A DNA stretch of 29,708 bases from an uncultured Pygmaiobacter sp. (GCA_944386485.1 CALXBG010000028.1:1-29708), one strand, 5' to 3'; numbered from the stretch's first letter, positions 1 through 29,708 are shown. The notes: a model not told the origin generated them from the sequence alone. Numbers and translations: made by a program.

Positions 1-49
1 TGCAGCAGCGGGTGGTGTGAGGCTTTACGATTTTACCTAAGCTTTGCAC

Positions 50-124
50 GGCCCGATGGTCAAGAGGTCAAGACACCACCCTTTCACGGTGGTATCCCGG
101 GTTCGATTCCCGGTCGGGTCACCA
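50..124 (+). tRNA. tRNA-Glu (anticodon UUC), 75 nt including encoded CCA
   Basis: Folds by hand into a cloverleaf. Acceptor GGCCCGA pairs with TCGGGTC (one G-U). Anticodon stem CCACC/GGTGG carries loop CTTTCAC, giving anticodon TTC. T arm is CCGGG-TTCGATT-CCCGG, followed by discriminator A and CCA at 122-124. Confidence 0.93.
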
Positions 125-129
125 AACGA

Positions 130-176
130 AACAAATCCGAACTCAGCAATGGGTTCGGATTTGTTGTTATATTTTG
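130..176 (+). terminator. Rho-independent terminator after tRNA-Glu
   Basis: Perfect 13-bp stem: AACAAATCCGAAC (130-142) pairs with GTTCGGATTTGTT (153-165). It is followed by a T-rich tract, GTTATATTTT. Confidence 0.75.
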
Positions 177-185
177 AAATTGAAG

Positions 186-225
186 CAGGGAGCGGATCAG
201 CTGTTGGATCCGCTCCCTGTTTCAT
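186..225 (+). terminator. Second stem-loop (possible back-up terminator or insulator)
   Basis: Perfect 13-bp stem: CAGGGAGCGGATC (186-198) pairs with GATCCGCTCCCTG (207-219). The following T tract is short (TTTCAT), so terminator function is less certain. Confidence 0.5.
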
Positions 226-326
226 ATCAAGGATTGTACGCGTTGATTGATTCGGGTGTGCGTTTCGCAGAGTCCTTTAATTTTACGCACAGGCGGTTGT
301 TCCAAGGAGAAAATAGAGACAAATGA

Positions 327-355
327 TTGAACTGCATAGAAAATAACGCTATTAT
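327..355 (+). promoter_or_regulatory. Candidate sigma-A promoter of the 415-8167 operon
   Basis: -35 TTGAAC (327-332), 17-nt spacer, -10 TATTAT (350-355). It sits in the only AT-rich stretch upstream of the first gene. RBS AGGAGGGG lies at about 400-407. Confidence 0.45.
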
Positions 356-414
356 TAAAAAGAACAAAGCATTTTCCAAAAACGCAAAAGCGAGTTTGGC
401 AGGAGGGGAATGAA

Positions 415-1836
415 ATGGCGCTTTTTGATGTAATTGAGTATGAGGGTTCCGGCGAAGTTCTGATCCACCGGGCCGCACAGACCGATTTCAATACCCACAG
501 CACACTGGTGGTGCGGGAGTCCCAGAAGGCGATTTTAATCCGCAATGGACAGCTGGCGGATATCTTTGATCCCGGACGGTATGTGTTGCACACCCAGAAC
601 ATTCCCATCCTCAGCAAGCTGGTCAACCTGCCCACCGGCGGGGTGTCTCCATTTCAGTGCGAGGTCTACTTCATCAACCAGGCAATCTCCCTCAACCGCA
701 AATGGGGAACCAGTAGTCAGGCGCGGGTTTACGACCACACCTATGATCTGATCCTCACCATCGGTGCAAACGGCGCGATGGGGCTGCGGGTGCGGGATCC
801 GCGGCAGGTGCTGCTCTCGGTGGTCGGGACCGAGCCGGATCTGACCGGGGATCAGTTCCTGGACTATTTCCGGGACACCATCTCGATGAAGATCAAGGAG
901 TACATCGCACGGGTTATGCAGCGCCCTGAGATTGACTTTATGGTGCTTGACGCAAATCTCAGCGAGTTTTCAAACCAGGCCAAGGCTTTGCTCAACGAGG
1001 AGCTTGCCGAATACGGGGTGGAGATCTGCAACTTTTCAATCAGCAACATCCAGATTCCAGACGAACAGTATGAGGCGGTCTTGGTGATGCAGAACAAGCG
1101 TCATCTGCAGCGCCAGCGGGAGTTTGAGATGAAAGGCGACCTGAACCTGCAGATGATGAAGGCACAGGGGGATCGCGCCAGCCTGATGGTGGACGCCCAG
1201 GGAGAAAACGAGCGGCGCAAACTACAGGCGCTCACCGACGTCGAGATCGCGAATCTGCAGATCGACGTCGACGCTCACCGCACCGAGCGGATGGCGCAGG
1301 CTGAGGCGCGCGCCCGGGCTGTGCAGGGTTACAACTGGGCAGATCAGCAGCAGGCCGAGGTGGCGAAACTCTACGCTGCATCCGGCAGCCTGCAGAACAA
1401 CCCCGCCAATATGTTGGCGCAGGCGCCGATGGCGCTGGCCTTCGGAGATCTGCTTCGAGACAATGTCGAGCCGGTGATGAATCCCAACTACTCCAATCCC
1501 GGAATGAACTTCGGCAACGGGTTTCCCGGACAGAGCGGCGGGGAACAGCACAGCCCGTCCGGCGGCTTTGGCGCGCCGGAGGATTTCTCCCTGGGCATCG
1601 AGCCGGCCGACCCCACGACACCGGCCGACCCCACCGCACCGGAGGCACCGGCCGAACCGGCGGTGGCAGCGATCTGTCCGAACTGCGGCGCTTCGCTTGC
1701 CGGCAGCCCGAAATTCTGCCCCGAGTGCGGCACCCGACTGGCGCCGGCCGAGCCGGTGCGGTGTGGTTGCGGTCATCTCTTTGGGCCAAAAGAAAAGTTC
1801 TGTCCCGAGTGCGGCAGCCCCCGCCCCGGCGTCTAA
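415..1836 (+). CDS. SPFH/Band-7-like protein (YdjI / COG4260-like) with a Pro/Ala-rich linker and two C-terminal zinc ribbons
   Basis: 473-aa ORF with RBS AGGAGGGG. The N-terminal ~230 aa resemble the COG4260 'virion core protein-like' SPFH family (DVIEYEG...LIHR...V.ESQ.A....G...D...PGRY.L). A coiled-coil segment follows (QRQREFEMKGDLNLQMMKAQ...). Then comes the linker ADPTTPADPTAPEAPAEP. The two CxxC ribbons are CPNCG..x..FCPECG and CGCGH..x..FCPECG (about 1675-1818). Confidence 0.85.
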   Translation: MALFDVIEYEGSGEVLIHRAAQTDFNTHSTLVVRESQKAILIRNGQLADIFDPGRYVLHTQNIPILSKLVNLPTGGVSPFQCEVYFINQAISLNRKWGTSSQARVYDHTYDLILTIGANGAMGLRVRDPRQVLLSVVGTEPDLTGDQFLDYFRDTISMKIKEYIARVMQRPEIDFMVLDANLSEFSNQAKALLNEELAEYGVEICNFSISNIQIPDEQYEAVLVMQNKRHLQRQREFEMKGDLNLQMMKAQGDRASLMVDAQGENERRKLQALTDVEIANLQIDVDAHRTERMAQAEARARAVQGYNWADQQQAEVAKLYAASGSLQNNPANMLAQAPMALAFGDLLRDNVEPVMNPNYSNPGMNFGNGFPGQSGGEQHSPSGGFGAPEDFSLGIEPADPTTPADPTAPEAPAEPAVAAICPNCGASLAGSPKFCPECGTRLAPAEPVRCGCGHLFGPKEKFCPECGSPRPGV

Positions 1837-1905
1837 AGATTTCAACAATCCGGCAGCGACGGGTGGAAAACCCGCGGCCCGGAAAGGCAGAGGAGGAAAA
1901 CGGAA

Positions 1906-3849
1906 ATGGCGGTATTCAACTGCAAGATGTGTGGGGGCGACCTCGAGGTGATCGACCCTGAAAACGGATTGGCACAGTGCGAGAGCTGCGGCAAGAAGCA
2001 GACGTTGCCAAATGAACAGGATGAGCGGAAGGCCAATCAGTTCAACCGGGCCAATCACTACCGGCGCAGCAATGAGTTTGACCGGGCGGCGGACGCCTAT
2101 GCCAAGATTCTGGACACCGATCCCGGCGAGGCGGAGGCCTATTGGGGCATCGTGCTCTGCCGGTACGGCATCGAATATGTAGAGGATAAAAAGACGATGC
2201 GCCGGGTGCCGACCTGCCACCGCACCCTGACCCGCTCAATCCTGCAGGACCCCGATTACCTGCAGGCGCTCTCCTGTGCAAAGCCGCTGGCCCGGCTGCA
2301 GTATGAGGAGGAGGCGCAGGAGATCGACCGGCTGCAGAAAGAGATTCTCGCGCTGGCGAGTAAGGAGGAGCCGTTCGATATCTTCATCAGCTACAAGGAG
2401 ACCGACGAGCGCAGCGGTCAGCGCACGCCTGACAGCGTGTTGGCACAGGAGATCTACACCGCGCTGACGCGAGAGGGATACAAGGTCTTTTTCTCCCGCA
2501 TCACGCTGGAAAACCGGCTCGGACAGGATTACGAACCGATCATCTACGCCGCGCTGCGCTCAGCGAAGGTGATGGTGGCGGTGGGTACCCGGCCGGAGTA
2601 CTTTTCGGCTCCCTGGGTGCGCAACGAGTGGAACCGCTATCTCGGGATGATGGAGGAGGCGCAGGGCGGCAAAACCCTGATCCCGGTCTACCGGGAGATG
2701 GACCCTTACGACCTGCCGGAAGAGTTCTCCCATCTGCAAGGGCTTAACGCCGCCAACATCGGCTTTTTGCAGGATCTGCTGCACGGCATCGAGAAGCTGA
2801 TCCGGCAACCCGCGCAGCCGGCCGCAGCCGCAGCGCCGGCTGCGCCGTCGGGTGGAGCCAATGTGGAATCGCTGCTGCAGCGGGTGGATTTCTTCCTCGA
2901 GGACGGCAGGTTTGACAGCGCGCGGGAGTACTGCAACCGGGTGCTGGACATCGCCCCGACCGATTGGCGGCCCTATCTGGATCTGGTGCTCTGTGCGAGA
3001 CAGCAGCGCACCGCCGCGGCCCTTGCCGCGCAGGAGTCCAGCATCCACACCGACGAGAATTTCCAGAAGGCGCTGCGGTTTGCACCAAAGGAAAAAAAGG
3101 AGGAGCTGATCGGCTACGCGGCCGCGGCCTTTGCTGCCGAGCAGAGCAAGGTCGAGGAACTCTGCGCCGCCGAGCAGCAGAAGGAAGAGGGCTTGTTGCG
3201 TGAGTTGAAACCGCTCGAAGAACAGCTCGCACAGCCGCTGGCGCAGCTGCGGGAGAAAAAACAGAAGGCCGACGAGCTCGGGCGCCAGATTGCAGAGGAG
3301 GAAAAAAAGCAGCAGGAAGCGGCGGCGCAGAAGGCCCAGCACTACAATGTCAAACAGGCGCTGTATCAGAAATATAAACAAGAGAACGCAAAGGGCAATG
3401 TGGTCGAGGGCAATCTATTTGGCGATCTGGTCGGCTCTTTGATCCTGGCCGCGATCTGTTTTGTCATCGGGCTGATCGCCGGGGCGCTGTTCTTTCCACT
3501 AGGGGTCATCATCTGGGTACTGGGCGGAATTTCGATTCTTTTTTCGAATGTACAGACATATAGAAACAGGGAACTTCAGACCGACAGAAAAGAATACCAA
3601 AAACAGGGGAAAGAGGCCAAAAAGGCGCTGACGAAAGAGATGTCCAGTAAGCTGAAGGTGCAGTCGCTGGTCAAAGAAAAAAATCGATATGATGTTGAGA
3701 GCAACCAGATTTATCAGGTCAACAAGGCGCCGATGGATCAGCGCGCTGCGCTGATCCGACAGATCAACGACTGCAGAGAGAAGGTGCAGCAGAGCAAGCG
3801 CAGCCAGGAGGAGAATCTCAAATTGGCGCAAAAGATAGGGATTGTCTGA
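1906..3849 (+). CDS. TIR-domain protein: N-terminal zinc ribbon, TPR-like repeat, TIR, second TPR-like repeat, coiled coil, TM hairpin, charged coiled-coil tail
   Basis: 647-aa ORF with RBS GAGGAGGAAAA upstream. Zinc ribbon CKMCGG..x..CESCGKKQTLP at 1921-1989. TIR signature FDIFISYKETDE ... KVFFSR ... SAPWVRNEW spans about 2371-2790, with the candidate catalytic Glu241 codon at 2626-2628. Hydrophobic hairpin LVGSLILAAICFVIGLIAGALFF-PLGVIIWVLGGISILF at about 3421-3546. K/E/Q-rich coiled-coil segments flank the hairpin. Confidence 0.85.
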   Translation: MAVFNCKMCGGDLEVIDPENGLAQCESCGKKQTLPNEQDERKANQFNRANHYRRSNEFDRAADAYAKILDTDPGEAEAYWGIVLCRYGIEYVEDKKTMRRVPTCHRTLTRSILQDPDYLQALSCAKPLARLQYEEEAQEIDRLQKEILALASKEEPFDIFISYKETDERSGQRTPDSVLAQEIYTALTREGYKVFFSRITLENRLGQDYEPIIYAALRSAKVMVAVGTRPEYFSAPWVRNEWNRYLGMMEEAQGGKTLIPVYREMDPYDLPEEFSHLQGLNAANIGFLQDLLHGIEKLIRQPAQPAAAAAPAAPSGGANVESLLQRVDFFLEDGRFDSAREYCNRVLDIAPTDWRPYLDLVLCARQQRTAAALAAQESSIHTDENFQKALRFAPKEKKEELIGYAAAAFAAEQSKVEELCAAEQQKEEGLLRELKPLEEQLAQPLAQLREKKQKADELGRQIAEEEKKQQEAAAQKAQHYNVKQALYQKYKQENAKGNVVEGNLFGDLVGSLILAAICFVIGLIAGALFFPLGVIIWVLGGISILFSNVQTYRNRELQTDRKEYQKQGKEAKKALTKEMSSKLKVQSLVKEKNRYDVESNQIYQVNKAPMDQRAALIRQINDCREKVQQSKRSQEENLKLAQKIGIV

Positions 3850-3928
3850 ACCGATGCGCCGTGAGACAGGGGGGCAGCACAAGGCCGAAAACCCTGTGCT
3901 GCCCTTTGAGAAAGGATGTGGGGGAAGG

Positions 3929-6580
3929 ATGCCGCAGTTTGTGCCGATCCCGCTGAAAAACGGGCAGGTTTTGGGCTGTGTCGCCTATGAGATCACCTCG
4001 GTGCCGCAGGCATCGCAGGAGGGCGCAGCGGCGCAGACGGAGAATGAGACCGCTTTTTACAATCTGCTGGGCGAGGTGTACCGCTACTGCGCACCGGATG
4101 CGGCGGTGCTTGAGCTGCTCTGGTCGGCTCAGCCGGTCGAAAACCAGCCCCATGCGGCCCAGCTGCATCTGTACGCGGTGGCGCGGATGCTCTGCGCCGA
4201 CCGCAAGGAGCTGGAAACCCGGCTGCAGGCAGTCTGCGACAACCTGACCACCCGGTTGCAGGCCGGCGGCTTTCGGTTTGCCGAGGCCGACCTCGAGGCG
4301 CTGCGACCCTTTCTGCCTGACGGCGCCGCCTGTGTCAACGCGGTGACCAAAGCGGAACAGTGCACGTTGCACCCGCAGGCCGCCTTCCCTTATTATTATG
4401 CCGAACCGCTGCCCGAGCACGGCACCGACGATTTTGCGATGCTCAGCCGCACGATGGCCGAGCTGCCGGGCAGCGCGGTTTCGTTTCAGCTGTTGCCCAC
4501 CGGCTATACCGCCGCCGAGAGCGCCGCGTTGGAACAGATGCAGTCGCTGCTGGCCCAGGTTGTCGGGGGCACCACGATCGGCGGGCGGGCCTACCGCGAC
4601 CCGCTGGCCCAACCGGCGCTGGACGCGATCGGCCATACCGCCGCCCGGCTGCGCCAACCGGTCTTTCGCTACAACATCCTCGCCTTCGGCAACCAGAGCC
4701 AATGCGCGGCGCTGACCGCGCAGATCATCAGCCTGCTGCGCTGTGGCAGTGCCCGCAGCTTCGTCACCGTCAACCTCAACGCCGAACGGTTGGATCTGCG
4801 CCGCCAGTTCGCCTGGTATCCCTGGCAGATCAACCAAAAATTGTTGCGCGGTTACCGCAATACCCAGCTCTGGAGCCGGGTCAAGCTGCCGCAGGCCCTG
4901 TTTCGACTGCCGATGCTGCTCGGCGCCGAGGAGGCGACCACCTTTTTCCGACTGCCGCTGGGGGGCGACAAGCTCGCCGGATTGCCCAGCCACAGAGCGT
5001 TGCAGAATGCCCAGCAGCTCGACCCGCGGGTGGTTGCGGGGGAGAACCTTCAATTCGGGATACTGGCGGGGGGCGTCGCGCCGATCGGCTGCCCGCCCAA
5101 GAATCTGACCAAGCACATGTTGGTGGTCGGCAAACCCGGTACCGGAAAGACCACCTTTTCGGTCAATCTTCTGTTGCAGCTCTACCAGAAGGGGGTTCCC
5201 TTTCTTGCGATCGAGCCGACCAAAACCGAGTATCGGGCGATGATCGACGCCATCCCGGATCTGCAGATCTTCACCCCCGGCAACAACGGGGTCAGTCCCT
5301 TTGTCATCAATCCGTTCATTCCGCCCAAGGGGATCACCGTCGAGCAGTTTGTGCCCAGCCTTGCCAGCGCATTCAAGGCGGCATTCTCGATGCCGTCCCC
5401 GCTGGACACCATCTTTCAGGCCGCGATTCAGGAGGCGTATGTCCAGTATGGTTGGCGGGATTACAGTACCGCCGCCGACCCGGACGTCACCCCGTTCGGG
5501 CTGCACGAGTTTATCCTCGTGTTCAAGAATCTCATCGCCCGGGAAAAGTACAGCGCCGAGGTCAAGGGCAACCTGCAGAGCGGCGGTGTGTTGCGGCTGC
5601 GCAACCTGATTGAACAGAATGCCAACATCTACGACACCACCCACTCGGTGCCGCTGGAGGATCTGCTGGTGCACCCCACCGTGCTGGAACTCAACGCGAT
5701 CGACAATGAGGAGCAAAAATCGGTGCTGATGGCGCTGCTGCTCATCAATATCTGCGTTTATACCAAGCACAACCATCTGGGAGACGGCAAGCTGAAGAAC
5801 GCGATTTTGATCGATGAAGCGCATGTCCTCTTCAAGGCGGGCGGATCCAGCGAGGGGGCGAACACCACCGTGCGCTCACTCGAAAATATGCTCGCCGAGA
5901 TCCGCTCCTACGGCACCGGCATCATCATCGCCGACCAGTCCCCGGCGGCAGTCGGAGCCGAGGTGGTAAAGAACACCGAGGTCAAGACGGTGTTTCAGCT
6001 GGTTGACGTCGGCGACCGCAAGACCATCGCCGCCACCACCAACATGACCGCGGAACAGGAGGAACAGATTCCCCGGCTCGGGGTCGGCGAGGCGTTTATC
6101 AGCTATGGCCTGCTGGCCGAACCGGCGCTGGTGCAAACCCCCGATGTGCGGGAGGAACAGGGGATCCGGCTGAGTGTCTCGAACGAAGAGGTACACCGCC
6201 GGATGACCTATTGGGACAGCCACGGGCCGCTGTTGATCCCGTTTTACGAGTGTGGACAGTCGACGGTCTGCGCCGGCGGCTGCGATCTGCGGCTGCGCAG
6301 CGATGCGGCCTTCTTCGCGGCGCGGTTTGCCCAGAGCTACGGCGGCAAGATCACCGACGCGAAGAGCCTGTGCGCCTATGCCCGCGCCCTCGACGGCTGG
6401 CTGGATGAGCAGACCCCGCAGAGCGACCCGGAACGGCGGCGCCGGCTGCACAACTGCACCAAGATCCGGCTGATCCGCCGGATGATGCAGCAGCGGGAGA
6501 TTCCGCAGAGCCCCGCCGCCTATCAGAAACTGCTGCAGGCCGCCCTGGCCGAGGGAGCCGCCCCGCAGCCCGAAGCATAA
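3929..6580 (+). CDS. HerA/FtsK-superfamily P-loop ATPase (DUF87-like) with a ~400-aa uncharacterised N-terminal region and a Cys-containing C-terminal tail
   Basis: The long ORF opens at TTG 3842. I prefer ATG 3929 (MPQFVPIPLK...) because it is preceded by the purine-rich RBS AAAGGATGTGGGGGAAGG. ATG 3854 is a further alternative. Walker A VVGKPGTGKTT at 5129-5155. Walker B AILIDEAH at 5801-5824. HerA-type context is present: PFLAIEPTKTEY and IIIADQSPAAV...VKNTEVKTVFQL. Confidence 0.8.
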   Translation: MPQFVPIPLKNGQVLGCVAYEITSVPQASQEGAAAQTENETAFYNLLGEVYRYCAPDAAVLELLWSAQPVENQPHAAQLHLYAVARMLCADRKELETRLQAVCDNLTTRLQAGGFRFAEADLEALRPFLPDGAACVNAVTKAEQCTLHPQAAFPYYYAEPLPEHGTDDFAMLSRTMAELPGSAVSFQLLPTGYTAAESAALEQMQSLLAQVVGGTTIGGRAYRDPLAQPALDAIGHTAARLRQPVFRYNILAFGNQSQCAALTAQIISLLRCGSARSFVTVNLNAERLDLRRQFAWYPWQINQKLLRGYRNTQLWSRVKLPQALFRLPMLLGAEEATTFFRLPLGGDKLAGLPSHRALQNAQQLDPRVVAGENLQFGILAGGVAPIGCPPKNLTKHMLVVGKPGTGKTTFSVNLLLQLYQKGVPFLAIEPTKTEYRAMIDAIPDLQIFTPGNNGVSPFVINPFIPPKGITVEQFVPSLASAFKAAFSMPSPLDTIFQAAIQEAYVQYGWRDYSTAADPDVTPFGLHEFILVFKNLIAREKYSAEVKGNLQSGGVLRLRNLIEQNANIYDTTHSVPLEDLLVHPTVLELNAIDNEEQKSVLMALLLINICVYTKHNHLGDGKLKNAILIDEAHVLFKAGGSSEGANTTVRSLENMLAEIRSYGTGIIIADQSPAAVGAEVVKNTEVKTVFQLVDVGDRKTIAATTNMTAEQEEQIPRLGVGEAFISYGLLAEPALVQTPDVREEQGIRLSVSNEEVHRRMTYWDSHGPLLIPFYECGQSTVCAGGCDLRLRSDAAFFAARFAQSYGGKITDAKSLCAYARALDGWLDEQTPQSDPERRRRLHNCTKIRLIRRMMQQREIPQSPAAYQKLLQAALAEGAAPQPEA

Positions 6581-6592
6581 AGGAGAAACGCG

Positions 6593-8167
6593 ATGTGGGA
6601 CGAAGAATTTGACAGCGATCTCGACACCGGAAGCGACGTCGATTGCGATGTCGACGACGGCGGTTATGACCTCGATGACAGCGGATCCGATCTGCAGGTC
6701 AATCTTGACGAGAGCGTGGATTTCGATCTTGCCGATGTCGAACCGGCCGAACCCGCGGATCTCGATCTGGATGCAGAAGACTTTGAGGAACCCGCGGCGG
6801 ATCTGCCGGTGGAGCTCGAGGATGCCGGCGATCTTGCCGACGGCATGGCGCTGGATGAGGTCGAGGTGGCCGACCTCGGCGATCCCGAGGAGGAGCCGTC
6901 CGCCGGCGGCGAAATCAGCGATGAGCTGCTCGAGGCTTGGATGCAGGCTGAGCAGGAGGGGATACAGGAGTCCGGCGAAGAGGACGTCAAGGTACTGCGC
7001 CGGGATCCGGATGAGCTGATGGAGACCGGGATGCAGAATGTCGAGGAAATCCTCGACGTCCGCCGCGACGACATGATGGATAAGGGGATGAGCGAGGAGG
7101 AGATTGAGCAGGCAATCGCACAGGAGCGGGAGGCGCTGCGGTGGGAGTTTGTGCAGGACGCCTTCCCCGAGCGGTTTGAAGCACAGGAGCCCGAAGAGCT
7201 CGAAATGGAAGAGACAGCCGACCTTGCAGTAAAGGAAGAGAACGACACCGAAGAGGTTACCGATCTTGCAGCTGCACAGGATCTCGACCTGGAACAGGAT
7301 GAGGCGGATGCCCTGGAAACAGAATCGGAGGAGCTGGATGAGACGGCGGATACAGGGCTTGAGGGGACTCAGGTGACAGACGCCGATCTAGAGGAGGAAA
7401 CCGAGCCGGAGGACGATCTCGCCGAGCCGCTGGAGGAAGAGGAGATTTCCGAGCCGCTGGCAGAGGAACTGTCAAAAACCGAGCTGGAGGATACGGCGCT
7501 GCCCGAAGACGTTTCGGATGAGGAGGAAGAAGCGCCCGATCTGATGCGGGAGCTGGTGCGGCAGAATGTGCAGGACGTCCGGCTGCCGCGAGAAGGCGGC
7601 ACCTGGGCCGACCCCGCGCAGGCGGGGGAGGGGCTCTGGATACCGGACGACGATGCCGAACTCTTCTGGAAGGAGGAAGCCGGCGGCTCGATGACCGGCG
7701 CCGAGTTCAAACAGCGGTATGGGGTCGAGGGGGTGACCTACCGGGACGGAGAACCGGATTTTGAACCGTTCGAGGACGAACTGTTGGGCCATGTTGAACT
7801 GGAGGAGATGCCGACCGAGCGCACCGGGGCAGAGGGCAGCTATGCCGCCGCAACCCGCGCCGCCGCCGACCGGCTCGGAATCAGCGAGCAGGAGGTCGAG
7901 CAGCGGATGGAGGAGCGGGGGTTGACCTGGCACGAATGTGGCGACCGGCGAACGGTGCGGGCGATTCCGACCGAGGTCAACGCCGCGTTTCCCCACACCG
8001 GCGGAATCAGCATCCAGCGCGGCGTGCGGGCGATGGCGGAAGAACTAGCCGACCGGTATGGAACCGTGCGGCTGGATCGCAACGGCCCTGCCGGAACAAC
8101 CGAAGGGTTGACCGAGGCCCGCGGTGCCGTCCGGAGGGAATACCGTGGACAAAAGCGGAAGCTGTGA
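6593..8167 (+). CDS. Hyper-acidic protein with a C-terminal HNH/EndoVII-fold (WHH / GH-E-like, polymorphic-toxin type) nuclease domain
   Basis: 524-aa ORF. RBS AAAGGAG lies 6 nt before the ATG and 12 nt after the ATPase stop codon. 42 of the first 100 residues are D/E and none is K/R (counted by hand). The C-terminal region GEPDFEPF...GHVELE...LTWHECGDRRTVRAIPTEVNAAFPHTGG (about 7748-8020) follows the PDF...(Y)TWHH...LVP..H....HTGG layout of HNH/EndoVII toxin domains. The domain call is from memory of the family pattern, not from a search. Confidence 0.7.
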   Translation: MWDEEFDSDLDTGSDVDCDVDDGGYDLDDSGSDLQVNLDESVDFDLADVEPAEPADLDLDAEDFEEPAADLPVELEDAGDLADGMALDEVEVADLGDPEEEPSAGGEISDELLEAWMQAEQEGIQESGEEDVKVLRRDPDELMETGMQNVEEILDVRRDDMMDKGMSEEEIEQAIAQEREALRWEFVQDAFPERFEAQEPEELEMEETADLAVKEENDTEEVTDLAAAQDLDLEQDEADALETESEELDETADTGLEGTQVTDADLEEETEPEDDLAEPLEEEEISEPLAEELSKTELEDTALPEDVSDEEEEAPDLMRELVRQNVQDVRLPREGGTWADPAQAGEGLWIPDDDAELFWKEEAGGSMTGAEFKQRYGVEGVTYRDGEPDFEPFEDELLGHVELEEMPTERTGAEGSYAAATRAAADRLGISEQEVEQRMEERGLTWHECGDRRTVRAIPTEVNAAFPHTGGISIQRGVRAMAEELADRYGTVRLDRNGPAGTTEGLTEARGAVRREYRGQKRKL

Positions 8168-8170
8168 ATA

Positions 8171-8220
8171 AAAAGAGCCGGGATCTTGGACCGTCACGCC
8201 CAAGATCCCGGCTCTTTCTT
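8171..8220. terminator. Bidirectional rho-independent terminator between convergent genes
   Basis: Perfect 16-bp stem: AGAGCCGGGATCTTGG (8174-8189) pairs with CCAAGATCCCGGCTCT (8200-8215). An A-run lies upstream and TTCTT downstream, so it can serve both the + strand operon and the minus-strand HAD gene. Confidence 0.8.
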
Positions 8221-8235
8221 GCGGTTGAGAAAAGA

Positions 8236-9069
8236 TCAGCGGTCGGCGGGGCGGGTCATCCGCACCGCGGCGAAACCGGCCAGCAGCGGCAGAGCCACAC
8301 AGGCCGCGACGCCTGCTGCGTTGCCAACGAACAGAAAGTAGATCAGTCCGACTAGCCCAACCAACATCAACAGTACCGAAAAGAGTGCAAGACCGCGGCG
8401 CAGCCCCTCGGCTCGATTTCGACTAAGTACGGCGGTCAGAACGTCTTCAGGCACGGCTGCGATCTGCTGGGCACCGGCCGCTTCCAGCTCATCGGCGTCT
8501 CGAAAACCCCACAGTACGCCGCAGCTTGCGGTTTTGGCATTCTGGGCGGTGTGGATGTCGACGTTGCTGTCCCCGACATAGAGTACCTGATCGGGATGCA
8601 GCCCAAAGTCAGCGATTACGCGATTGAGTGCGGCGGGATCGGGTTTAACCAGCGTACCCTGCTGGCCCGCAACCGAGTCGAAAATGCCGGGGAAGTATTG
8701 TTCAACGATCTGGGTGACAAATTCATGTGGTTTGTTTGAGACCACGCCGAGCCGAATCCCTTTAGCTTTAAGGGCGGTCAGCAGCTGTGGGATGCCGGGA
8801 TAGGGAACGGTGCAGTCCCGCATATGGGCCTGATAATGGGTGTCAAACAAACCGCTTGCCCGCTCGACGGCGGATTCATCGGTTCGCAGCTGCTCAGGCA
8901 GCATCCGCAGAATCAGATTGCGTCGTCCATCTCCGACAAGGTGCTTGTATTCCTCCACGGTGTAGGTGGGCAGCCCCATCTCGGTCAGCGCAAAATTGCA
9001 GGCATTGGCAAGATCCTCGATGGTGTTGAGCAGAGTGCCGTCGAGGTCGAAAATCACAGCTTTGATCAT
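8236..9069 (-). CDS. HAD-superfamily phosphatase (phosphoglycolate phosphatase/PpaX-like) with a C-terminal hydrophobic hairpin
   Basis: HAD motif I is present: MIKAVIFDLDGTLLNT. Later motifs are VVSNK and YVGDSNVDI. I chose the ATG at 9069 because a perfect RBS (AAAGGAG) lies 9 nt upstream. The track's GTG at 9090 abuts that RBS. The last ~55 aa are two hydrophobic segments: LALFSVLLMLVGLVGLIYFLFVG and VAACVALPLLAGFAAV. Confidence 0.85.
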   Translation of the reverse strand: MIKAVIFDLDGTLLNTIEDLANACNFALTEMGLPTYTVEEYKHLVGDGRRNLILRMLPEQLRTDESAVERASGLFDTHYQAHMRDCTVPYPGIPQLLTALKAKGIRLGVVSNKPHEFVTQIVEQYFPGIFDSVAGQQGTLVKPDPAALNRVIADFGLHPDQVLYVGDSNVDIHTAQNAKTASCGVLWGFRDADELEAAGAQQIAAVPEDVLTAVLSRNRAEGLRRGLALFSVLLMLVGLVGLIYFLFVGNAAGVAACVALPLLAGFAAVRMTRPADR

Positions 9070-9121
9070 AAAAACGTACTCCTTTGGCACAGCCGAACGA
9101 TGTTCGGCCAGAATATTTGGT

Positions 9122-10498
9122 TCAGAGATTGAATTCTAACTCCCGCGCCCGGAAAAACTCGATACCGCGCAGATGATAGGTCCGGCGGGTGGGAGTGAAG
9201 ATCCGCAGATCACATCGCCCAGCAGAGGCAGCGGTCGGGAACCGGGTGATCAAAAGGGAGAGGTCATCGGTATAGAGTGAGACCAGATACCGGGTGAACC
9301 CACGGCAATAGCTGACCGAAAGGGTGCGGTTTTCATTGCGGCAAAACCCCTCACGGAAAAAACCCTCAAGACTGCATAGCAGAGCGCCTAGTGCGAGCAG
9401 AGCCAAAATCCAGAGCAAAAAGCTCACCTGCGGCAGCACCCGCAACGAGACGATTCCCAGCGAGAGAACCAGAATCAGCAGCGAGCCGGGTTTCCACAGA
9501 TACTGCGGCAGGCTTTTGCGGCGGGGATTGCACAGCGGCCGGTCAGGCGGGCAAAACTCGGGCAGCAACTGGCGCAGCTGTGGGACACTTTTTTTGCTCA
9601 GGGTAAAGATTGGCAGGTCCTCACCGCGAAAGCAGCCCGCGCTCAGATAGACCGGGCAGCGGCGCAACAACCGTGCGGCCGGGGTAATTCGCAGACTGCT
9701 GGCGGTAATCGCGTCGACAAAGACCCGCCGTTCGGTATGGGTCAAAAGACCGCCTCGGCTGAGCAGCACACCACCCGAGCGGGCGGCGGTAAATCGGTAG
9801 GTCCGCAAAAGGCTGTTGAAAAGAGAAAGGGCGAAGACCAGCAGCCCTATCGTTACCACAAGCGAAGCGCCTGCCGGCACAAAAGCGGTCAACAGATGCT
9901 CCAGCCGGGTGATCCCGTCGATCGCGAGTGCCCGAAAATCCTCCCCGAGAAGAGAAAAGATTCGGCGGGCGGAAAGAACCGAAAAAAAGGCGGTGGCGAT
10001 CACATTTGCCGACAGCAGCATGAAGAAAAGCCGTTCGGCCCCGACCGGAGTAAAGGCACTCGCCGCAGCGGCATCAGGCACCAGACGGCGGGCAAGCCGA
10101 CGTGCCTGACGGGCGGATAGGGTGATTTTGATTCTGCGCAGACCGCTGCCTGCGCGAAAATAAATGGTCAACACCGAGGCCCCGAACAGGCGGCAGAGAA
10201 GGTTGCGCTGTAACTCCACCGCGCTCACCTGCGCGGTAGAGGTGCGGTTGCAGCGGCGCAGCAGAACACCACTTCGAATCATCAGTACACCGTCGGTCAA
10301 TGAGAGGGAACTGGCTCGATGCATTGCCGCCAAAATCCCACCGCAGGCAAGCAAGATGGCAAACTCCTGCATCAGGGTTCGCCAGGCGGAAAAAAAGGCA
10401 AAATCCAGTACTGCCTGCAAGACCGGCAGCAGGCAGAGCAGCAGAAAGTACTTGACATATTTTAGAAAATGCAGCGGGTGTAATCGAATGGGGTGCAT
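9122..10498 (-). CDS. YdbT-like membrane protein with repeated bacterial PH (bPH_2) domains
   Basis: The start at 10498 (MHPIRLHPLHFLKYVKYF...) overlaps the upstream stop codon in an ATGA junction. TM helices alternate with PH-like segments, for example SLSLTDGVLMIRSGVLLRRCNRTSTAQVSAVELQRNLLCRLFGASVLTIYF. Size and pairing match the ydbS-ydbT arrangement. Confidence 0.75.
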   Translation of the reverse strand: MHPIRLHPLHFLKYVKYFLLLCLLPVLQAVLDFAFFSAWRTLMQEFAILLACGGILAAMHRASSLSLTDGVLMIRSGVLLRRCNRTSTAQVSAVELQRNLLCRLFGASVLTIYFRAGSGLRRIKITLSARQARRLARRLVPDAAAASAFTPVGAERLFFMLLSANVIATAFFSVLSARRIFSLLGEDFRALAIDGITRLEHLLTAFVPAGASLVVTIGLLVFALSLFNSLLRTYRFTAARSGGVLLSRGGLLTHTERRVFVDAITASSLRITPAARLLRRCPVYLSAGCFRGEDLPIFTLSKKSVPQLRQLLPEFCPPDRPLCNPRRKSLPQYLWKPGSLLILVLSLGIVSLRVLPQVSFLLWILALLALGALLCSLEGFFREGFCRNENRTLSVSYCRGFTRYLVSLYTDDLSLLITRFPTAASAGRCDLRIFTPTRRTYHLRGIEFFRARELEFNL

Positions 10499-13611: not shown

Positions 13612-13774
13612 ACCACACACCTCATTCCAGCGAAAAGCGGTTAAAAGGTACGCCCGGCAAAATACAAATTGCCGAGCAGCTATATTATAACGCACTTCCT
13701 GTAAAATAGCAATAAACAGATGAATCTTGACCCCGGAAAAGGAAAAGATGATCAGGGAAAAAGCAGACAAAGGC

Positions 13775-13802
13775 TTGCAAAAATGAAAAAATGTGGTATG
13801 AT
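13775..13802 (+). promoter_or_regulatory. Promoter of tRNA-Arg
   Basis: -35 TTGCAA (13775-13780), 16-nt spacer, extended -10 TGgTATGAT (13794-13802). It lies ~25 nt upstream of the tRNA 5' end. Confidence 0.6.
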
Positions 13803-13826
13803 AATAAATGCACTTTAACAGCGCAT

Positions 13827-13903
13827 GCGTCCGTAGCTCAGTTGGATAGAGCGTTCGGCTCCGACCCGGAAGGCCGCAGGTTCGAATCCTGTCGGGCGCA
13901 CCA
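13827..13903 (+). tRNA. tRNA-Arg (anticodon CCG), 77 nt including CCA
   Basis: Acceptor GCGTCCG pairs with CGGGCGC. D arm is GCTC-AGTTGGATA-GAGC. Anticodon stem TTCGG/CCGGA carries loop CTCCGAC. T arm is GCAGG-TTCGAAT-CCTGT, followed by ACCA. Confidence 0.93.
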
Positions 13904-13949
13904 AAAATCGGCAAGTATCTAAAAGGTACTTGCCGATTTTTATTTTTTA
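13904..13949 (+). terminator. Rho-independent terminator after tRNA-Arg
   Basis: Stem ATCGGCAAGTA (13907-13917) pairs with TACTTGCCGAT (13927-13937). It is followed by TTTTATTTTTT. Confidence 0.85.
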
Positions 13950-13991
13950 CATGCCCTTTGGAAAATAGCGGGTAGAATGGCGGGAAGACAG

Positions 13992-14020
13992 TTGTCGCAC
14001 CAGCAGGGACGTGGTATACT
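13992..14020 (+). promoter_or_regulatory. Candidate promoter of the zinc-ribbon membrane protein gene
   Basis: -35 TTGTCG (13992-13997), 17-nt spacer, extended -10 TGgTATACT (14012-14020). Confidence 0.5.
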
Positions 14021-14071
14021 GAAGGTACAAAATTCCTCAGAATGAAAACAGGATCAAAAGGAGGGAGTCAG

Positions 14072-15616
14072 ATGAACTGTCCCAATTGTGGCAATCCCGT
14101 TTCAGAGGGAGCTTCTTTCTGCCCGTTGTGTGGGTCAAGGGTGAATGCGGCGTTGTCTGCACAGCACCAGGAACAGTCGGCGCCGGGCAATCCGGTACAG
14201 CCGGTGCAAGGGGAGAGCGGCCCGCAGACGGCCGCGCAGCAGGGCAATGACCAGTCTGGCTATACGCAGCAGAGTTACCCGCAGCAAGGTTACACGCAGC
14301 AGAGCTATGGCCAGCAAAGCTACACCCAGCAGAACTACGGCCAACCGGGGTATGGCTACAATCAGCCGGATATGGGACCGCAGCGGCCGGTCAGTCCCTA
14401 TTATCAGCGGCAGTTTGCCCTGATCGCGCAGGGCCAGCGCAGCCGGTTTAACTGGGCGGCTTTCTTTCTCGGGCCGTATCATGCGGTCTACCGCGGTCAT
14501 ACCAAGCGGTTTCTCGCCCTTTACCTGCCGCTGCTGATCCTGACCTTGGTCAACGAGGTCGCGCTGATTGCGGCATTTGGAGCGAATAACCTTTCTCTGA
14601 TCGGGATCACGGTGATTCTCAGCTGGGTTATCTCCCTGGTTTCCATCGGCCTTGCGATCTATAATGGACTTACCTTTAATAAAAGCTATTTTGCCCTCTG
14701 TGGCGGTGACCCGCGGGTGCCATCCTGCGGCGGACGGCTTGCCGTGACCATCATCACGGTGACGCTGGTCAGCATTGTGGCCGCGGTTGCCCTTTTCGGC
14801 GTCATGATGAACCAGGCGTTCAGCCAGCTGGAAAATTTGGGTGAGTATCCCTTCGATAACTCTTACGTTGAGCAGCTGCCCCCTGACGGTACCGTGCCGC
14901 AGGGCGGACAGCAGGAGCCGCAGACCGGTTCGCAGTCCGCTGTGACCGGCGGTACACAGGATATTACCGGGCTGCTCGTTGATTACGGCGACGTCGTCGC
15001 CGATCAGCTGTACCTGCTGGGCTGGAACGACCCTGATATGACCGAGGCGGAGCAGATTGTCAACAGCGCTTATCTGTTCCGCTCGGATAAGGTGAGCATG
15101 ATTGACGCCCTCAGCACCGCCTCGCAATCGATCTACTGGGAGGAGGTACAGCCCAGCGAAACAGTTTTTGAAGGAGCCAGATATTTTTCCGTCTACTGTA
15201 CGCTGGAAGAGGGAGACATCGTCTTTGACTTCGCCATCGGCGGGGGCAATGTGATGGTTTTCGGCTGCTATGTCTGGGAGGGCGAGAACTATGTCGGGCT
15301 GAATGAGCAGCAAGCTTCTGCGTTGCTGGAAGCTCTGTACAGCCGGGCGGGCGTACCCCAGTCGATTCCCTATCAGGCGCGCGGAAGCTGGCGGACCTCT
15401 GCCGGTGAGGAGTTCGTGCTGGATGGCGAGACTCTCAACGGACAGCCCTATACCCTCTGGTTTATGAGCGAAGATATTCTTGCGGTCTATCTGGACAACG
15501 TCGAGGGAGTAGAGGGCGAGTATTACATGATGATAGAGGGCCCGATCCTCAATGTCTGGCAGTACGACGCGAGCGGGGCGATCATCAACGATCTGTACTA
15601 TACAAAAGCCAACTAA
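14072..15616 (+). CDS. Zinc-ribbon / Q,Y-rich repeat / DUF2628-like multi-TM protein with a C-terminal extracytoplasmic domain
   Basis: ATG at 14072 with RBS AAAGGAGGGAG upstream. The track start at 14042 lacks an RBS. N-terminal ribbon MNCPNCGNPVSEGASFCPLCG. YxQQx pentapeptide repeats follow. RFNWAAFFLGPYHAVYRGHTKRF is DUF2628-like. Three or four TM helices precede a ~270-aa soluble tail. Confidence 0.8.
   Translation: MNCPNCGNPVSEGASFCPLCGSRVNAALSAQHQEQSAPGNPVQPVQGESGPQTAAQQGNDQSGYTQQSYPQQGYTQQSYGQQSYTQQNYGQPGYGYNQPDMGPQRPVSPYYQRQFALIAQGQRSRFNWAAFFLGPYHAVYRGHTKRFLALYLPLLILTLVNEVALIAAFGANNLSLIGITVILSWVISLVSIGLAIYNGLTFNKSYFALCGGDPRVPSCGGRLAVTIITVTLVSIVAAVALFGVMMNQAFSQLENLGEYPFDNSYVEQLPPDGTVPQGGQQEPQTGSQSAVTGGTQDITGLLVDYGDVVADQLYLLGWNDPDMTEAEQIVNSAYLFRSDKVSMIDALSTASQSIYWEEVQPSETVFEGARYFSVYCTLEEGDIVFDFAIGGGNVMVFGCYVWEGENYVGLNEQQASALLEALYSRAGVPQSIPYQARGSWRTSAGEEFVLDGETLNGQPYTLWFMSEDILAVYLDNVEGVEGEYYMMIEGPILNVWQYDASGAIINDLYYTKAN
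14261..14350 (+). repeat. Six tandem 15-nt (pentapeptide) coding repeats, Y-[TPG]-Q-[QP]-[SGN]
   Basis: The units are TATACGCAGCAGAGT, TACCCGCAGCAAGGT, TACACGCAGCAGAGC, TATGGCCAGCAAAGC, TACACCCAGCAGAAC and TACGGCCAACCGGGG. All are in frame with the CDS. Confidence 0.8.
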
Positions 15617-19701: not shown

Positions 19702-20826
19702 ATGCGTTCCGACTATCAGACGCTGACCGCCGTCGAGCGGGCGTCGCTCGCGCTGCGGGAACTGTATGAGCGACTGGGCTACCGCAAGTATCGGATGGGG
19801 CAGTTTGAGGAATACAGCCTTTATATGGACAACAAAAACTTTCTGTCCAGCGAACGGGTGATCTCCTTTACCGACCTCGATGGGCGGCTGCTGGCGCTGC
19901 GCCCGGATGTGACCTTGAGCATTGTGCGGCATGCGTCGGAGCAGCCCCACGCCGCCGAGCGGCTCTATTATACCGAAAGTGTCTACCGGCCCAGCGCCGA
20001 GGGACACGCATTTAAGGAAATCAGCCAGATGGGCATCGAGGTGCTGGGTGAGATCGACCGATATGCGATGACCGAGGTCACGCTGCTGGCGGCCCAGAGC
20101 CTGTGCGCCTTTGGACCAAAAGGATTGCTCGAGCTGAGCGATCTGCGGTTTGCGGTCGGGCTGTTCGATGCGCTGGGATTAAAGGACGGGCTGCGGGTAC
20201 AGGCGCTTGATGCGCTGGGACAGAAGAACCGCCCGGCGCTCGAGACAGTTGCCCGGGCGGCCGGTCTTGGCACGGAGGATGCGGCGGCACTCTGCGCGCT
20301 GGTAGAGCTCTATGGCCCCTGGCAGCCGACGCTGGAGCGGGCGCGGGCGCTCTGCCGCGGAGAGACGATGGCGGCGGCGATAGAGGAGCTCGCGAGCGTC
20401 TGCGCGGCGGCCGCGCAGGGGGACAATCAGCTGGCGATCGATCTCTCGCTGGTGGGACATACTGATTACTATAACGGCCTGTTGCTGCGCGGTTACCTCG
20501 AGGGCCTGCCCCGGGCGGTATTGGTCGGCGGACGGTATGACGGAATCCTCAAAAAACTGGGCAAAGCGGGCGGCGGCATCGGTTTTGCGCTTGACCTGTC
20601 CGAGATCAGCCGGTTGCCGGAACAGAAGGATGACGCAGCGCTCGATCTGCTGGTGCAGTATACCGAAGACGCCGATCCCGCGGTGGTGGCGCGGGCGGTC
20701 GCCGGCGCGGCCCGGCAGGGGCTTCGGGTGCGCGCGCTGCGGCAGGAGGAGGATCCCGGTGAACGCTGCTGGAAAGACGCGCTGCTGATCAGCGGCGCGG
20801 GGGTGCAGAGAGGAGACGGCTGCTGA
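19702..20826 (+). CDS. hisZ: ATP phosphoribosyltransferase regulatory subunit HisZ (HisRS paralog)
   Basis: RBS GGAGGG upstream. The sequence is HisRS-like (LALRPDVTLSIVR; YYTESVYR). The position immediately upstream of a short-form hisG, with a TGATG junction, supports the call. Confidence 0.9.
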   Translation: MRSDYQTLTAVERASLALRELYERLGYRKYRMGQFEEYSLYMDNKNFLSSERVISFTDLDGRLLALRPDVTLSIVRHASEQPHAAERLYYTESVYRPSAEGHAFKEISQMGIEVLGEIDRYAMTEVTLLAAQSLCAFGPKGLLELSDLRFAVGLFDALGLKDGLRVQALDALGQKNRPALETVARAAGLGTEDAAALCALVELYGPWQPTLERARALCRGETMAAAIEELASVCAAAAQGDNQLAIDLSLVGHTDYYNGLLLRGYLEGLPRAVLVGGRYDGILKKLGKAGGGIGFALDLSEISRLPEQKDDAALDLLVQYTEDADPAVVARAVAGAARQGLRVRALRQEEDPGERCWKDALLISGAGVQRGDGC

Positions 20827-21458
20827 TGAGCGAATATTTGACCGTCGCGCTGCCTAAGGGGCGGCTGGGAGATAAGGTCTATAACCTGCTCGAGCGCGTT
20901 GGCTATGACTGCCGTGAGATCCGGGAGGACGGGCGCAAGCTGGTCTTTGAGAATCCCGCCGCCGGCGTGCGGTATCTGCTGGTCAAGCCCAGCGACGTGG
21001 CGATCTATGTCGAGCATGGGGCTGCCGACGTCGGAATCGTGGGAAAGGATATCCTCGAGGAAAACAGGCCGGATGTCTATGAACTGCTCGACCTGGGCAT
21101 CGGGCGCTGCCGGATGGCGGTGGCCTCCCGCAGCGATTACCGCGAGGATACCAGCCGCACGCTGCGGGTAGCGACCAAGTTTGAGAACATCGCAAAGCAG
21201 TATTACGCTTCTCTCAACCGGGATATCGAGATCATCCGGCTCAACGGCAGCATCGAGCTCGCGCCGCTGCTCGGGCTCTCTGATGTAATTGTCGATATCG
21301 TCGAGAGTGGTACCACCATTCGGGAGAACAATCTCAAGGTGTTTACCGAGTTCATGCAGATCAGCGCCCGGTTTATTGCGAACAAGTCCAGCTTCAAATT
21401 CAAAAACGAGGTCATCACCCGGATGGCCGATAAACTGAACGGAGTGATAAAGGTATGA
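20826..21458 (+). CDS. hisG: ATP phosphoribosyltransferase, short form (HisG-S)
   Basis: LTVALPKGRL...KPSDVAIYVEHGAADVGIVGKD...DIVESGTTIRENNL. At 210 aa it lacks the C-terminal regulatory domain. Confidence 0.95.
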   Translation: MSEYLTVALPKGRLGDKVYNLLERVGYDCREIREDGRKLVFENPAAGVRYLLVKPSDVAIYVEHGAADVGIVGKDILEENRPDVYELLDLGIGRCRMAVASRSDYREDTSRTLRVATKFENIAKQYYASLNRDIEIIRLNGSIELAPLLGLSDVIVDIVESGTTIRENNLKVFTEFMQISARFIANKSSFKFKNEVITRMADKLNGVIKV

Positions 21459-22735: not shown

Positions 22736-22776
22736 GGGAGCCGGCAAGATTGCCGGTTGTTGAGGAGGAGTAAGGG

Positions 22777-24428: not shown

Positions 24429-24446
24429 CCGGGAGGAGGAAGAGCG

Positions 24447-25058: not shown

Positions 25059-25071
25059 GGGGGTGCAGAGC

Positions 25072-26564: not shown

Positions 26565-26613
26565 GGAACGCAAAACAGAAAATCGCCCCGCGGGGCAGAA
26601 AAGGGAGAAAAAC

Positions 26614-29341: not shown

Positions 29342-29708
<367 letters not shown>

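Follow-up and report, generated by a model that had tools for sequence, protein, structure and literature searches.

A TIR protein with a predicted membrane hairpin encoded beside SPFH, HerA-like ATPase and WHH-nuclease genes in an uncultured Pygmaiobacter

Introduction

What does a TIR domain do when it is built into a protein with a zinc-ribbon head and a membrane segment, and how is its activity controlled? We addressed this question for a 29,708-nucleotide (nt) stretch of DNA from an uncultured Pygmaiobacter sp. (GCA_944386485.1, CALXBG010000028.1:1-29708), which was analysed in full and is henceforth referred to as the window. The protein in question, the TIR protein, is encoded at 1906..3849. 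Its gene lies in a cassette of four co-oriented genes, 3' of a tRNA-Glu gene and a promoter-like site, which encode a flotillin-like SPFH protein (415..1836), the TIR protein, a P-loop ATPase of the HerA/VirB4/DndH clade (3842..6580) and an acidic WHH-nuclease protein (6593..8167). All window features given with coordinates lie on the plus strand. We estimate at about one in two the probability that the TIR protein is a membrane-tethered effector or signal generator that consumes NAD+ (nicotinamide adenine dinucleotide) in a four-gene abortive-infection-type conflict system. An earlier note on this DNA had described the TIR protein; it had missed the downstream ATPase and nuclease genes of the same operon.

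TIR NADases are central to bacterial, plant and animal immunity, and the control of their clustering is a key question. They become active on oligomerisation, examples being SARM1, plant TIRs, AbTir, SPARTA and Thoeris. A catalytic-type TIR with a built-in membrane anchor and a genetic tie to an SPFH gene would offer a testable model of scaffold-controlled TIR activation.

A catalytic-type TIR domain and a predicted membrane hairpin

The open reading frame (ORF) at 1906..3849 encodes 647 amino acids (aa) and stands as the earlier note had drawn it, with every element that had been listed found in its place. We modelled the protein with AlphaFold2 (AF2) from an alignment of 118 sequences. The mean predicted local distance difference test score (pLDDT) of the model is 89.9, and values below 50 are confined to two segments, namely aa 304-317 of an Ala/Pro linker and a short break that precedes the hydrophobic segment.

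The central region, aa 156-300 (2371..2805), is a genuine TIR domain by profile and fold. Pfam TIR_2 (PF13676) matches aa 159-281 with an E-value of 3.5e-14 and 53.8 bits against a cut-off of 28, inside the TIR core that had been placed at about 2371-2790, and the domain has the flavodoxin-like TIR fold. The predicted catalytic glutamate, E241, lies in the motif WVRNEW (codon at 2626..2628, located by translation and alignment) and is invariant in the 118 sequences. When the family TIR profile was compared with PDB sequences, W-V-x-N-E-W aligned to W-C-L-M-E-L of flax L6/L7, and the equivalent motifs of AtTIR, PdTIR and an AbTir-type TIR also aligned with the E241 motif, which places E241 at the position of the catalytic glutamate. 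The WxxxE motif is present in 137 of 144 cluster representatives. Judged by its sequence and predicted fold, the domain passes the tests for the catalytic (NADase) type.

The hydrophobic segment had been described as two adjacent helices, and it behaves as a membrane hairpin and not as a buried core element. The two helices, aa 506-528 and 530-547 (3421..3546), reach a Kyte-Doolittle 19-residue maximum of 2.88, are separated by a 2-residue turn, and correspond to AF2 helices H504-528 and H530-605. Because K/R-rich flanks lie on both sides, the predicted topology is N-in/C-in, and aa 506-547 fits a membrane hairpin with both ends predicted to be cytoplasmic. It is followed by a basic helical C-terminal tail, aa 548-647 (3547..3846; AF2 helices with pLDDT 94-98), the charged tail of ~100 aa reported earlier, which has 23 K/R against 13 D/E and is resembled only in the closest homologues, the protein clusters P0004-P0007.

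N-terminal to the TIR domain is a head that begins with the four-cysteine zinc ribbon proposed from the CxxC..CxxC pattern (C6, C9, C25 and C28; 1921..1989). The cysteines are invariant or nearly so in the 118 homologues, Pfam Zn_ribbon_8 gives a weak match, and AF2 places three short strands there. The rest of the head (2026..2370) comprises a TPR pair (aa 41-86), a beta-hairpin (aa 87-110) with the strongly conserved motif YGIEYVED..PTxHR, and a helix (aa 111-155). Both of the TPR-like units that had been read from the sequence are recovered by Pfam, at aa 46-74 and aa 321-360 (TPR_1 1.3e-07, TPR_14 1.4e-07; also TPR_2 and TPR_19).

C-terminal to the TIR domain, the Ala/Pro-rich linker noticed previously (aa 301-319; 2806..2862) is flexible (low pLDDT), poorly conserved (0.38) and devoid of charged residues. 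The second TPR and the conserved helices that follow it, ending in NFQKALRF (aa 320-394; 2863..3087; Pfam TPR_14/TPR_19 and alignment), form the end of a family-wide module. Beyond it, aa 395-496 (3088..3393) had been called a long E/K/Q coiled coil. A single confident helix of ~100 residues is indeed predicted (H395-496, pLDDT ~96-98; conservation 0.30), in the variable region of the family. The coiled-coil part of that description did not hold, as the heptad periodicity of aa 395-496 is no better than that of shuffled sequences (477 of 2000 shuffles reach it), so that long helical stalk is the safer label. Heptad periodicity is modest in the C-terminal helices (36 of 2000 shuffles).

The head and the TIR domain belong to a large clostridial family

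We searched protein sequences with the TIR protein and obtained at least 8,000 candidates, nearly all significant, that align to residues 1-415 at ~50% identity. With ~50% identity over the N-terminal 415 aa across thousands of proteins, the shared features lie far beyond chance. Full-length matches among the candidates listed are confined to four clusters (P0004-P0007, 56-59% identity). A phmmer search of 1.84 billion cluster representatives with the head (aa 1-150) returned 2,266 head-containing clusters (50% identity) at E ≤ 1e-30. In a scan of species-representative genomes there were at least 600 matching stretches, of which 584 were confirmed relatives. The genome matches listed are almost all from Clostridia, including Oscillospiraceae, Lachnospiraceae, Acutalibacteraceae, Christensenellaceae, Ruminococcus and Blautia. 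The family comprises more than 2,000 clusters and is abundant in the human and animal gut.

Its members share the order zinc ribbon, TPR pair, beta-hairpin, helix, TIR, flexible linker, second TPR and a helix ending in NYQKALRF, and their C-termini vary past this module of ~415 residues. The architecture had been thought unusual; it is not unique and represents one C-terminal variant of a huge family. Among the 144 representatives, the estimated number of transmembrane (TM) helices is one in 72 (66 of these with at least 100 further residues), about two in 14 and three or more in 16, while none is detectable in 42. TIR_2 was found in 58 of the 59 representatives scanned with Pfam, and their C-terminal domains include DUF6273 (14), BspA-type leucine-rich repeats (LRR; 7), RCC1 (5) and LRR_8 (4), with single cases of others such as FGE-sulfatase. 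DUF6273 has been described as a C-type-lectin-like receptor-binding domain of gut phages (PMC10743442; bioRxiv 2024.10.15.618418). The window protein is a member of a minority hairpin class without an ectodomain.

Typical members have a cytoplasmic TIR, one TM helix and then an extracellular LRR, DUF6273, RCC1 or FGE-sulfatase region (P0036, P0050, P0104 and P0109; loci L005, L011, L022 and L065), and genes of this ectodomain type often occur as two to four tandem paralogues per locus. We also considered whether the DUF6273 relatives are diversified by a diversity-generating retroelement. No template/variable repeat pair was found in three loci, in which the repeats reflect TIR-gene paralogy, or are RCC1 and zinc-ribbon repeats, and the idea was dropped. 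Where relatives have a source name, their annotation goes no further than 'TIR domain-containing protein' or 'DUF6273 domain-containing protein', and no NCBIfam family covers the architecture of the TIR protein.

Conservation differs sharply along the chain. The mean fraction of the commonest residue is 0.80 in the first TPR unit, 0.81 in the beta-hairpin and 0.82 in the TIR domain vs 0.22-0.30 in the stalk, hairpin and tail. The head is also homologous to proteins that lack a TIR domain, namely a 197-aa zinc-ribbon/TPR protein of TIR-less HerA/SPFH loci (hhalign 95.2%) and a 279-aa head protein at locus L123 (hhalign 98.1%). As the head is constant and is present on non-TIR proteins of kindred loci, a role in contacting a conserved partner accounts for it better than the sensing of variable invaders. 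Its conservation, matching that of the TIR core, makes the sensor role suggested in the earlier note unlikely; the head looks like a docking module. In a separate observation, the first ~300 nt of three tandem TIR paralogues (L065:7441-7748, 9993-10300 and 13689-13996) are 91-94% identical and their 3' parts diverge, which suggests either that gene conversion has acted or that the zinc-ribbon/TPR head is under very strong constraint.

The TIR family is linked to a YdjI-type SPFH gene

The SPFH gene (415..1836; Pfam Band_7_1 1.2e-45, DZR 1.3e-07) encodes a 473-aa protein with Band_7_1 at aa 26-222, a helical and low-complexity region, and a double zinc ribbon at aa 421-467. It has no TM segment (maximum hydropathy 0.9) and has the architecture of YdjI/SamI. 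The number of C-terminal ribbons varies by locus, as the ribbon is tandemly repeated as four 84-nt units at L022:8912-9247 and as two units at L005:1413-1646.

We assessed whether the two genes belong together by retrieving 80 loci of the TIR family from species-representative genomes. A Band_7_1 SPFH gene is present on the same strand at 56 of the 80 loci (median gap 740 nt, maximum 1,769 nt), and at 25 of the 29 loci with at least 4 kilobases (kb) on both flanks. Conservation of the gene neighbourhood thus lends strong support to the tie to the upstream SPFH gene, a guess in the earlier note: SPFH and TIR genes are conserved neighbours across the TIR family, as are HerA and SPFH genes across the HerA-like family.

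The SPFH gene is followed at 52 of the 80 loci by a gene for a ~234-aa protein with four TM helices and a helical tail, which has no Pfam or PADLOC match. These genes are usually arranged as SPFH, then the gene for the 234-aa membrane protein, then between one and four TIR paralogues. A HerA-like ATPase or a WHH/acidic effector is encoded at none of the 80 typical loci, so the core role of the TIR protein is independent of them. The 234-aa membrane protein is absent from the window. We compared it with the C-terminal region of the TIR protein and rejected homology (hhalign 32%, with the TM region alone aligned); it is possible that this region substitutes for it functionally. Within the four-gene cassette, maximum hydropathy is 2.88 for the TIR protein, 1.28 for the ATPase, 0.9 for the SPFH protein and 0.35 for the WHH protein. 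A TM segment is present in no cassette member other than the TIR protein, which must therefore supply any membrane anchoring there.

A HerA-like ATPase and an acidic protein with exchangeable toxin domains

The longest ATPase ORF (3842..6580, 912 aa) has a TTG start that overlaps the stop of the TIR gene. The database version of 883 aa matches an ATG start at 3929 that is preceded by GGGGGAAGG, the probable start, and the ATPase/TIR overlap at 3842-3929 is thus probably an artefact of ORF calling. A conserved N-terminal extension of ~400 aa has no assigned fold. The ATPase fold is closest to HerA, DndH and VirB4, and to the HerA proteins of the DUF4297-HerA and Sir2-HerA systems. The best NCBIfam match is the DNA-translocating ATPase CedD, and scores against curated HerA models are far below the cut-offs. 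The evidence does not separate a defence-type from a secretion-type ATPase.

Homologues of the ATPase at 55% and 46% identity lie in operons that also have Band_7_1 and TIR genes. Across a sample of 53 metagenomic loci with ATPase homologues (31-55% identity), an SPFH gene is present at 33, the 234-aa membrane protein at 30, a TIR-family gene at 8 and a zinc-ribbon-headed protein at 37. TIR-less HerA/SPFH loci carry other zinc-ribbon-headed proteins instead (L110:7885-8478, L121:8057-9955, L136:5713-6807, L102:7975-9969 and L123:3966-4805). These replacements include a 197-aa zinc-ribbon/TPR protein accompanied by two small membrane proteins, one with a domain of the membrane-insertion factor YidD, a 364-aa zinc-ribbon protein with a C-terminal hairpin, and a 664-aa zinc-ribbon protein. 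One branch of the system has a PqqD-like gene, a radical-SAM gene and a 39-aa ORF, a trio resembling those for ribosomally synthesised and post-translationally modified peptides, between the SPFH/TIR genes and the HerA-like ATPase gene (L095:6161-7741 and L096:5490-7070).

The last cassette gene (6593..8167) encodes a 524-aa protein with Pfam matches to WHH (3.1e-08) and Colicin-DNase (8.5e-07). Its N-terminal 320 aa are 40-46% D/E, a middle domain carries 'KVLRRD...RRDDMxDKG', and the WHH/colicin-DNase-type nuclease domain is C-terminal (aa 382-474; 7736-8014). Across loci, the gene immediately 3' of the ATPase gene usually encodes a protein that starts with MCD and has a long D/E-rich region and a 'KVLxRD...RDDLRDKG' middle domain, followed by a C-terminal domain that is exchanged between WHH/colicin-DNase (as in the window), Gln_amidase 'papain fold toxin 1', and DUF6782 or other HExxH peptidases. 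Examples of these effector genes are L096:10030-11355, L105:12698-15127, L119:5894-8479, L123:7861-9702 and L146:12639-14243. No immunity-like ORF follows the WHH gene in the window, where 69 nt separate its stop at 8167 from a convergent HAD gene, and no immunity gene follows the WHH type at loci L001-L004.

The four-gene variant is rare

The same four-gene set occurs at two diverged loci, L001 and L002. At L003 and L004 we found a five-gene version with an additional multi-TM TIR paralogue, and integrases and a transposase flank the cluster. The TIR proteins of L001-L004 are 56-59% identical to that of the window. Each cassette protein of the window falls in a cluster of only 1-5 members, and the four-gene variant is therefore rare.

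A tRNA-Glu (UUC) gene directly 5' of the cassette (50..124; ARAGORN; Rfam tRNA 64.2 bits) marks its left boundary and is a possible integration hotspot. A sigma-70-like promoter match 5' of the SPFH gene (327..355), based on consensus only, is the sole promoter-like site on the plus strand within 1-9200. No convincing plus-strand terminator was found within 415-8167, consistent with a single operon. No PspA-type ORF is present in the cassette; the tRNA-Glu gene lies 5' instead.

The remainder of the window encodes a HAD hydrolase, a MatE transporter and histidine-biosynthesis genes. A tRNA-Arg (CCG) gene lies at 13827-13903, a histidine-biosynthesis operon at 19702-28097, and the window ends within a 16S rRNA gene, of which it holds the first 367 nt (29342-29708). 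These neighbours place the cassette in an ordinary chromosomal region. A look-up of the neighbouring HAD protein, meant to show whether the cassette is an insertion, found no record of its exact sequence on other contigs. At 14042-15616 lies the gene for a second 524-aa protein, again a zinc-ribbon-headed membrane protein and, by its position, unrelated to the cassette. Pfam matches the N-terminal ribbon to Zn_Ribbon_1 (1.7e-07); the protein also has a low-complexity stretch rich in Q, Y and G, several hydrophobic helices, and a C-terminal domain to which no family is assigned.

Proposed mechanism and alternative explanations

We propose that the zinc-ribbon/TPR head would dock the TIR protein onto the SPFH (or HerA) assembly, for which the recruitment of YdjI by YdjG and YdjH is a precedent. 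The hairpin would anchor the otherwise soluble complex at the membrane, and the stalk would keep the TIR head off the bilayer, within or under the SPFH oligomer. A trigger, either membrane perturbation or an invader sensed via the HerA-like motor, would rearrange the scaffold and bring the TIR domains together, leading to NAD+ hydrolysis. The WHH nuclease would be a second effector, restrained until then by its own acidic region. More broadly, and more tentatively, gut Clostridia could encode an undescribed modular membrane conflict machine, in which a YdjI-type scaffold combines with interchangeable headed adaptors and, in one branch, with a HerA/VirB4-like motor and an acidic polymorphic effector. 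Catalytic TIR proteins would be the dominant adaptor class of this machine, with the TLR-like form the commonest, and the window protein would be a hairpin-anchored version that lacks an ectodomain and doubles as the anchor holding the complex at the membrane.

Several observations weigh against a conflict system of the abortive-infection type. Among the defence systems known to PADLOC, the TIR protein has only a weak match to PDC-S66 (2.8e-05), the ATPase domain matches only HerA and mad8, and the SPFH protein, the 234-aa membrane protein, the acidic effectors and the alternative head proteins have no match. An origin from phages or plasmids was considered and rejected, as tblastn searches of 50,697 phage and 72,556 plasmid records gave no match; IMG/VR yielded only two TIR loci and one HerA locus. 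The usual loci with SPFH, membrane protein and TIR genes are chromosomal, lie among housekeeping genes and are very widespread, a setting that could equally fit an envelope-stress role like that of YdjGHI. Under that explanation, a clostridial counterpart of YdjGHI/SamGHI senses membrane damage, and the TIR domain tunes NAD+ or makes a nucleotide signal for stress or dormancy. The lack of PADLOC hits agrees with it, as do the YdjI architecture of the SPFH protein (Band_7_1, C-terminal zinc ribbon, no TM segment), the 4-TM protein that adjoins SPFH at 52 of 80 canonical loci, and the resemblance between MIISYKCPNC, the start of the zinc-ribbon-headed TM protein YdjG, and MAVFNCKMCGG in the TIR protein, a likeness of the starts only. 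It accounts less well for tandem paralogues with swapped ectodomains and for swapped toxin domains, which are signatures of an arms race, or for the rarity of the window variant and the integrases and transposase around L003 and L004. Moreover, the window has a tRNA-Glu gene upstream and no pspA, and a DNase effector without an immunity gene is hard to place in a repair response. We regard an envelope-stress module as unlikely.

The acidic protein weighs against suicide defence in a different way. A constant N-terminus (often MCD, D/E-rich, with KVLxRD) joined to a swappable toxin C-terminus follows the logic of polymorphic toxins and points towards delivery, and small ORFs often lie 3' of the other toxin types, such as a 98-aa ORF after the HELWH type at 6 loci. 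The HerA/VirB4-like ATPase, whose best match CedD translocates DNA, would then export the acidic toxin, with the SPFH protein and the headed membrane proteins, including the TIR protein, as structural or gating subunits. We consider such a delivery apparatus distinctly unlikely. The WHH type lacks a downstream immunity gene in the window and at L001-L004, the ATPase is without a TM segment, the window shows no evident channel-forming component, and no signal peptide or known secretion motif was identified. The 80 typical TIR loci have neither the ATPase nor the acidic effector, and a purely structural subunit would not need a conserved catalytic glutamate. The same glutamate bears on whether the TIR, like those of MyD88 and TIRAP, has no enzymatic role and serves for assembly or as an adaptor, nucleating membrane complexes and leaving the nuclease as the sole catalytic effector. 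TIR-TIR polymerisation is established for adaptor TIRs; however, the invariance of the WxxxE glutamate in the 118 homologues, the near-universal motif among the representatives, and the fact that most loci of the family have no other effector gene make a purely adaptor role very improbable.

Comparison with known systems

The TIR protein, together with the other cassette genes, invites comparison with several known systems. TIR NADase effectors, including Thoeris ThsB, SPARTA TIR-APAZ, TIR-SAVED and TIR-STING, AbTir, B. subtilis SpbK and SARM1, have the catalytic glutamate position W-x-x-x-E in common with the window TIR, and by analogy activation by induced proximity would be expected here too. 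None of them has a zinc-ribbon/TPR/beta-hairpin head, a second TPR, a membrane hairpin or an SPFH partner, and the window offers no partner of the ThsA, Argonaute, SAVED or STING kind. The neighbouring genes have no SIR2, Macro or SLOG domain and so do not make the locus a Thoeris system.

YdjI/SamI of B. subtilis is a soluble Band_7 SPFH protein with a C-terminal zinc finger (PMC8581546) that is recruited to the membrane by YdjH and YdjG (PMC8581546; bioRxiv 2021.02.15.431232; bioRxiv 2026.02.06.704340). YdjG spans the membrane and carries a zinc ribbon at its N-terminus, and its gene begins with MIISYKCPNC (primer in PMC8581546; bioRxiv 2021.02.15.431232). The window SPFH protein is likewise a soluble Band_7_1 protein with a C-terminal zinc finger, and the zinc-ribbon-headed TIR protein, with its predicted membrane hairpin, may be the counterpart of YdjG. 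In contrast to the window, the B. subtilis PspA-YdjGHI (SamGHI) module has no TIR, HerA-like ATPase or toxin-domain protein, whereas the window lacks the pspA linkage and its head adds a TPR and the conserved beta-hairpin.

Pairs of HerA and an effector, namely Sir2-HerA (Nezha), DUF4297-HerA, DndH of DndFGH and TdpAB, place a HerA-clade ATPase beside an NADase and/or a nuclease, an arrangement that the window, with its HerA-like ATPase, would share, and the PADLOC HerA and mad8 models match the domain of the window ATPase. The window ATPase is unique in its conserved N-terminal extension, and in place of the effectors of Sir2-HerA and DUF4297-HerA the window has a TIR protein, an acidic WHH protein and an SPFH protein. 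The post-ATPase gene shares with polymorphic toxins, including those exported by FtsK-HerA motors of the type VII secretion system kind, a conserved N-terminus and the catalogue domains WHH and Gln_amidase; the window, however, lacks a WXG100 protein, an LXG domain and a triple-domain EssC, and its WHH type is not followed by an immunity gene. The survey of polymorphic toxins by Zhang et al. 2012 (PMC3482391) does not describe this association. In our literature search we found no paper that links SPFH with TIR in phage defence or describes a HerA/SPFH/acidic-toxin cluster. The HerA-linked branch would represent a new module of motor and polymorphic effector outside the current catalogues of defence systems.

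Like Toll-like receptors, most members of the family combine an ectodomain (LRR, C-type-lectin-like DUF6273 or FGE-sulfatase, or RCC1) with a single TM helix and a TIR domain across the membrane, which raises the possibility of bacterial surface-sensing TIR receptors. The window protein departs from this topology, as it has a 2-TM hairpin and lacks an ectodomain. Family members carry the TIR N-terminal to the TM helix, the reverse of the order in Toll-like receptors, and the TIR keeps the catalytic glutamate; shared ancestry is unproven beyond the TIR fold. If confirmed, the proposed model would explain a sizeable block of unannotated gut-microbiome genes. Against these known systems, what is new here is a putative TIR effector variant in an SPFH/HerA setting, and the SPFH-centred system as a whole may prove to be a machine of a new kind.

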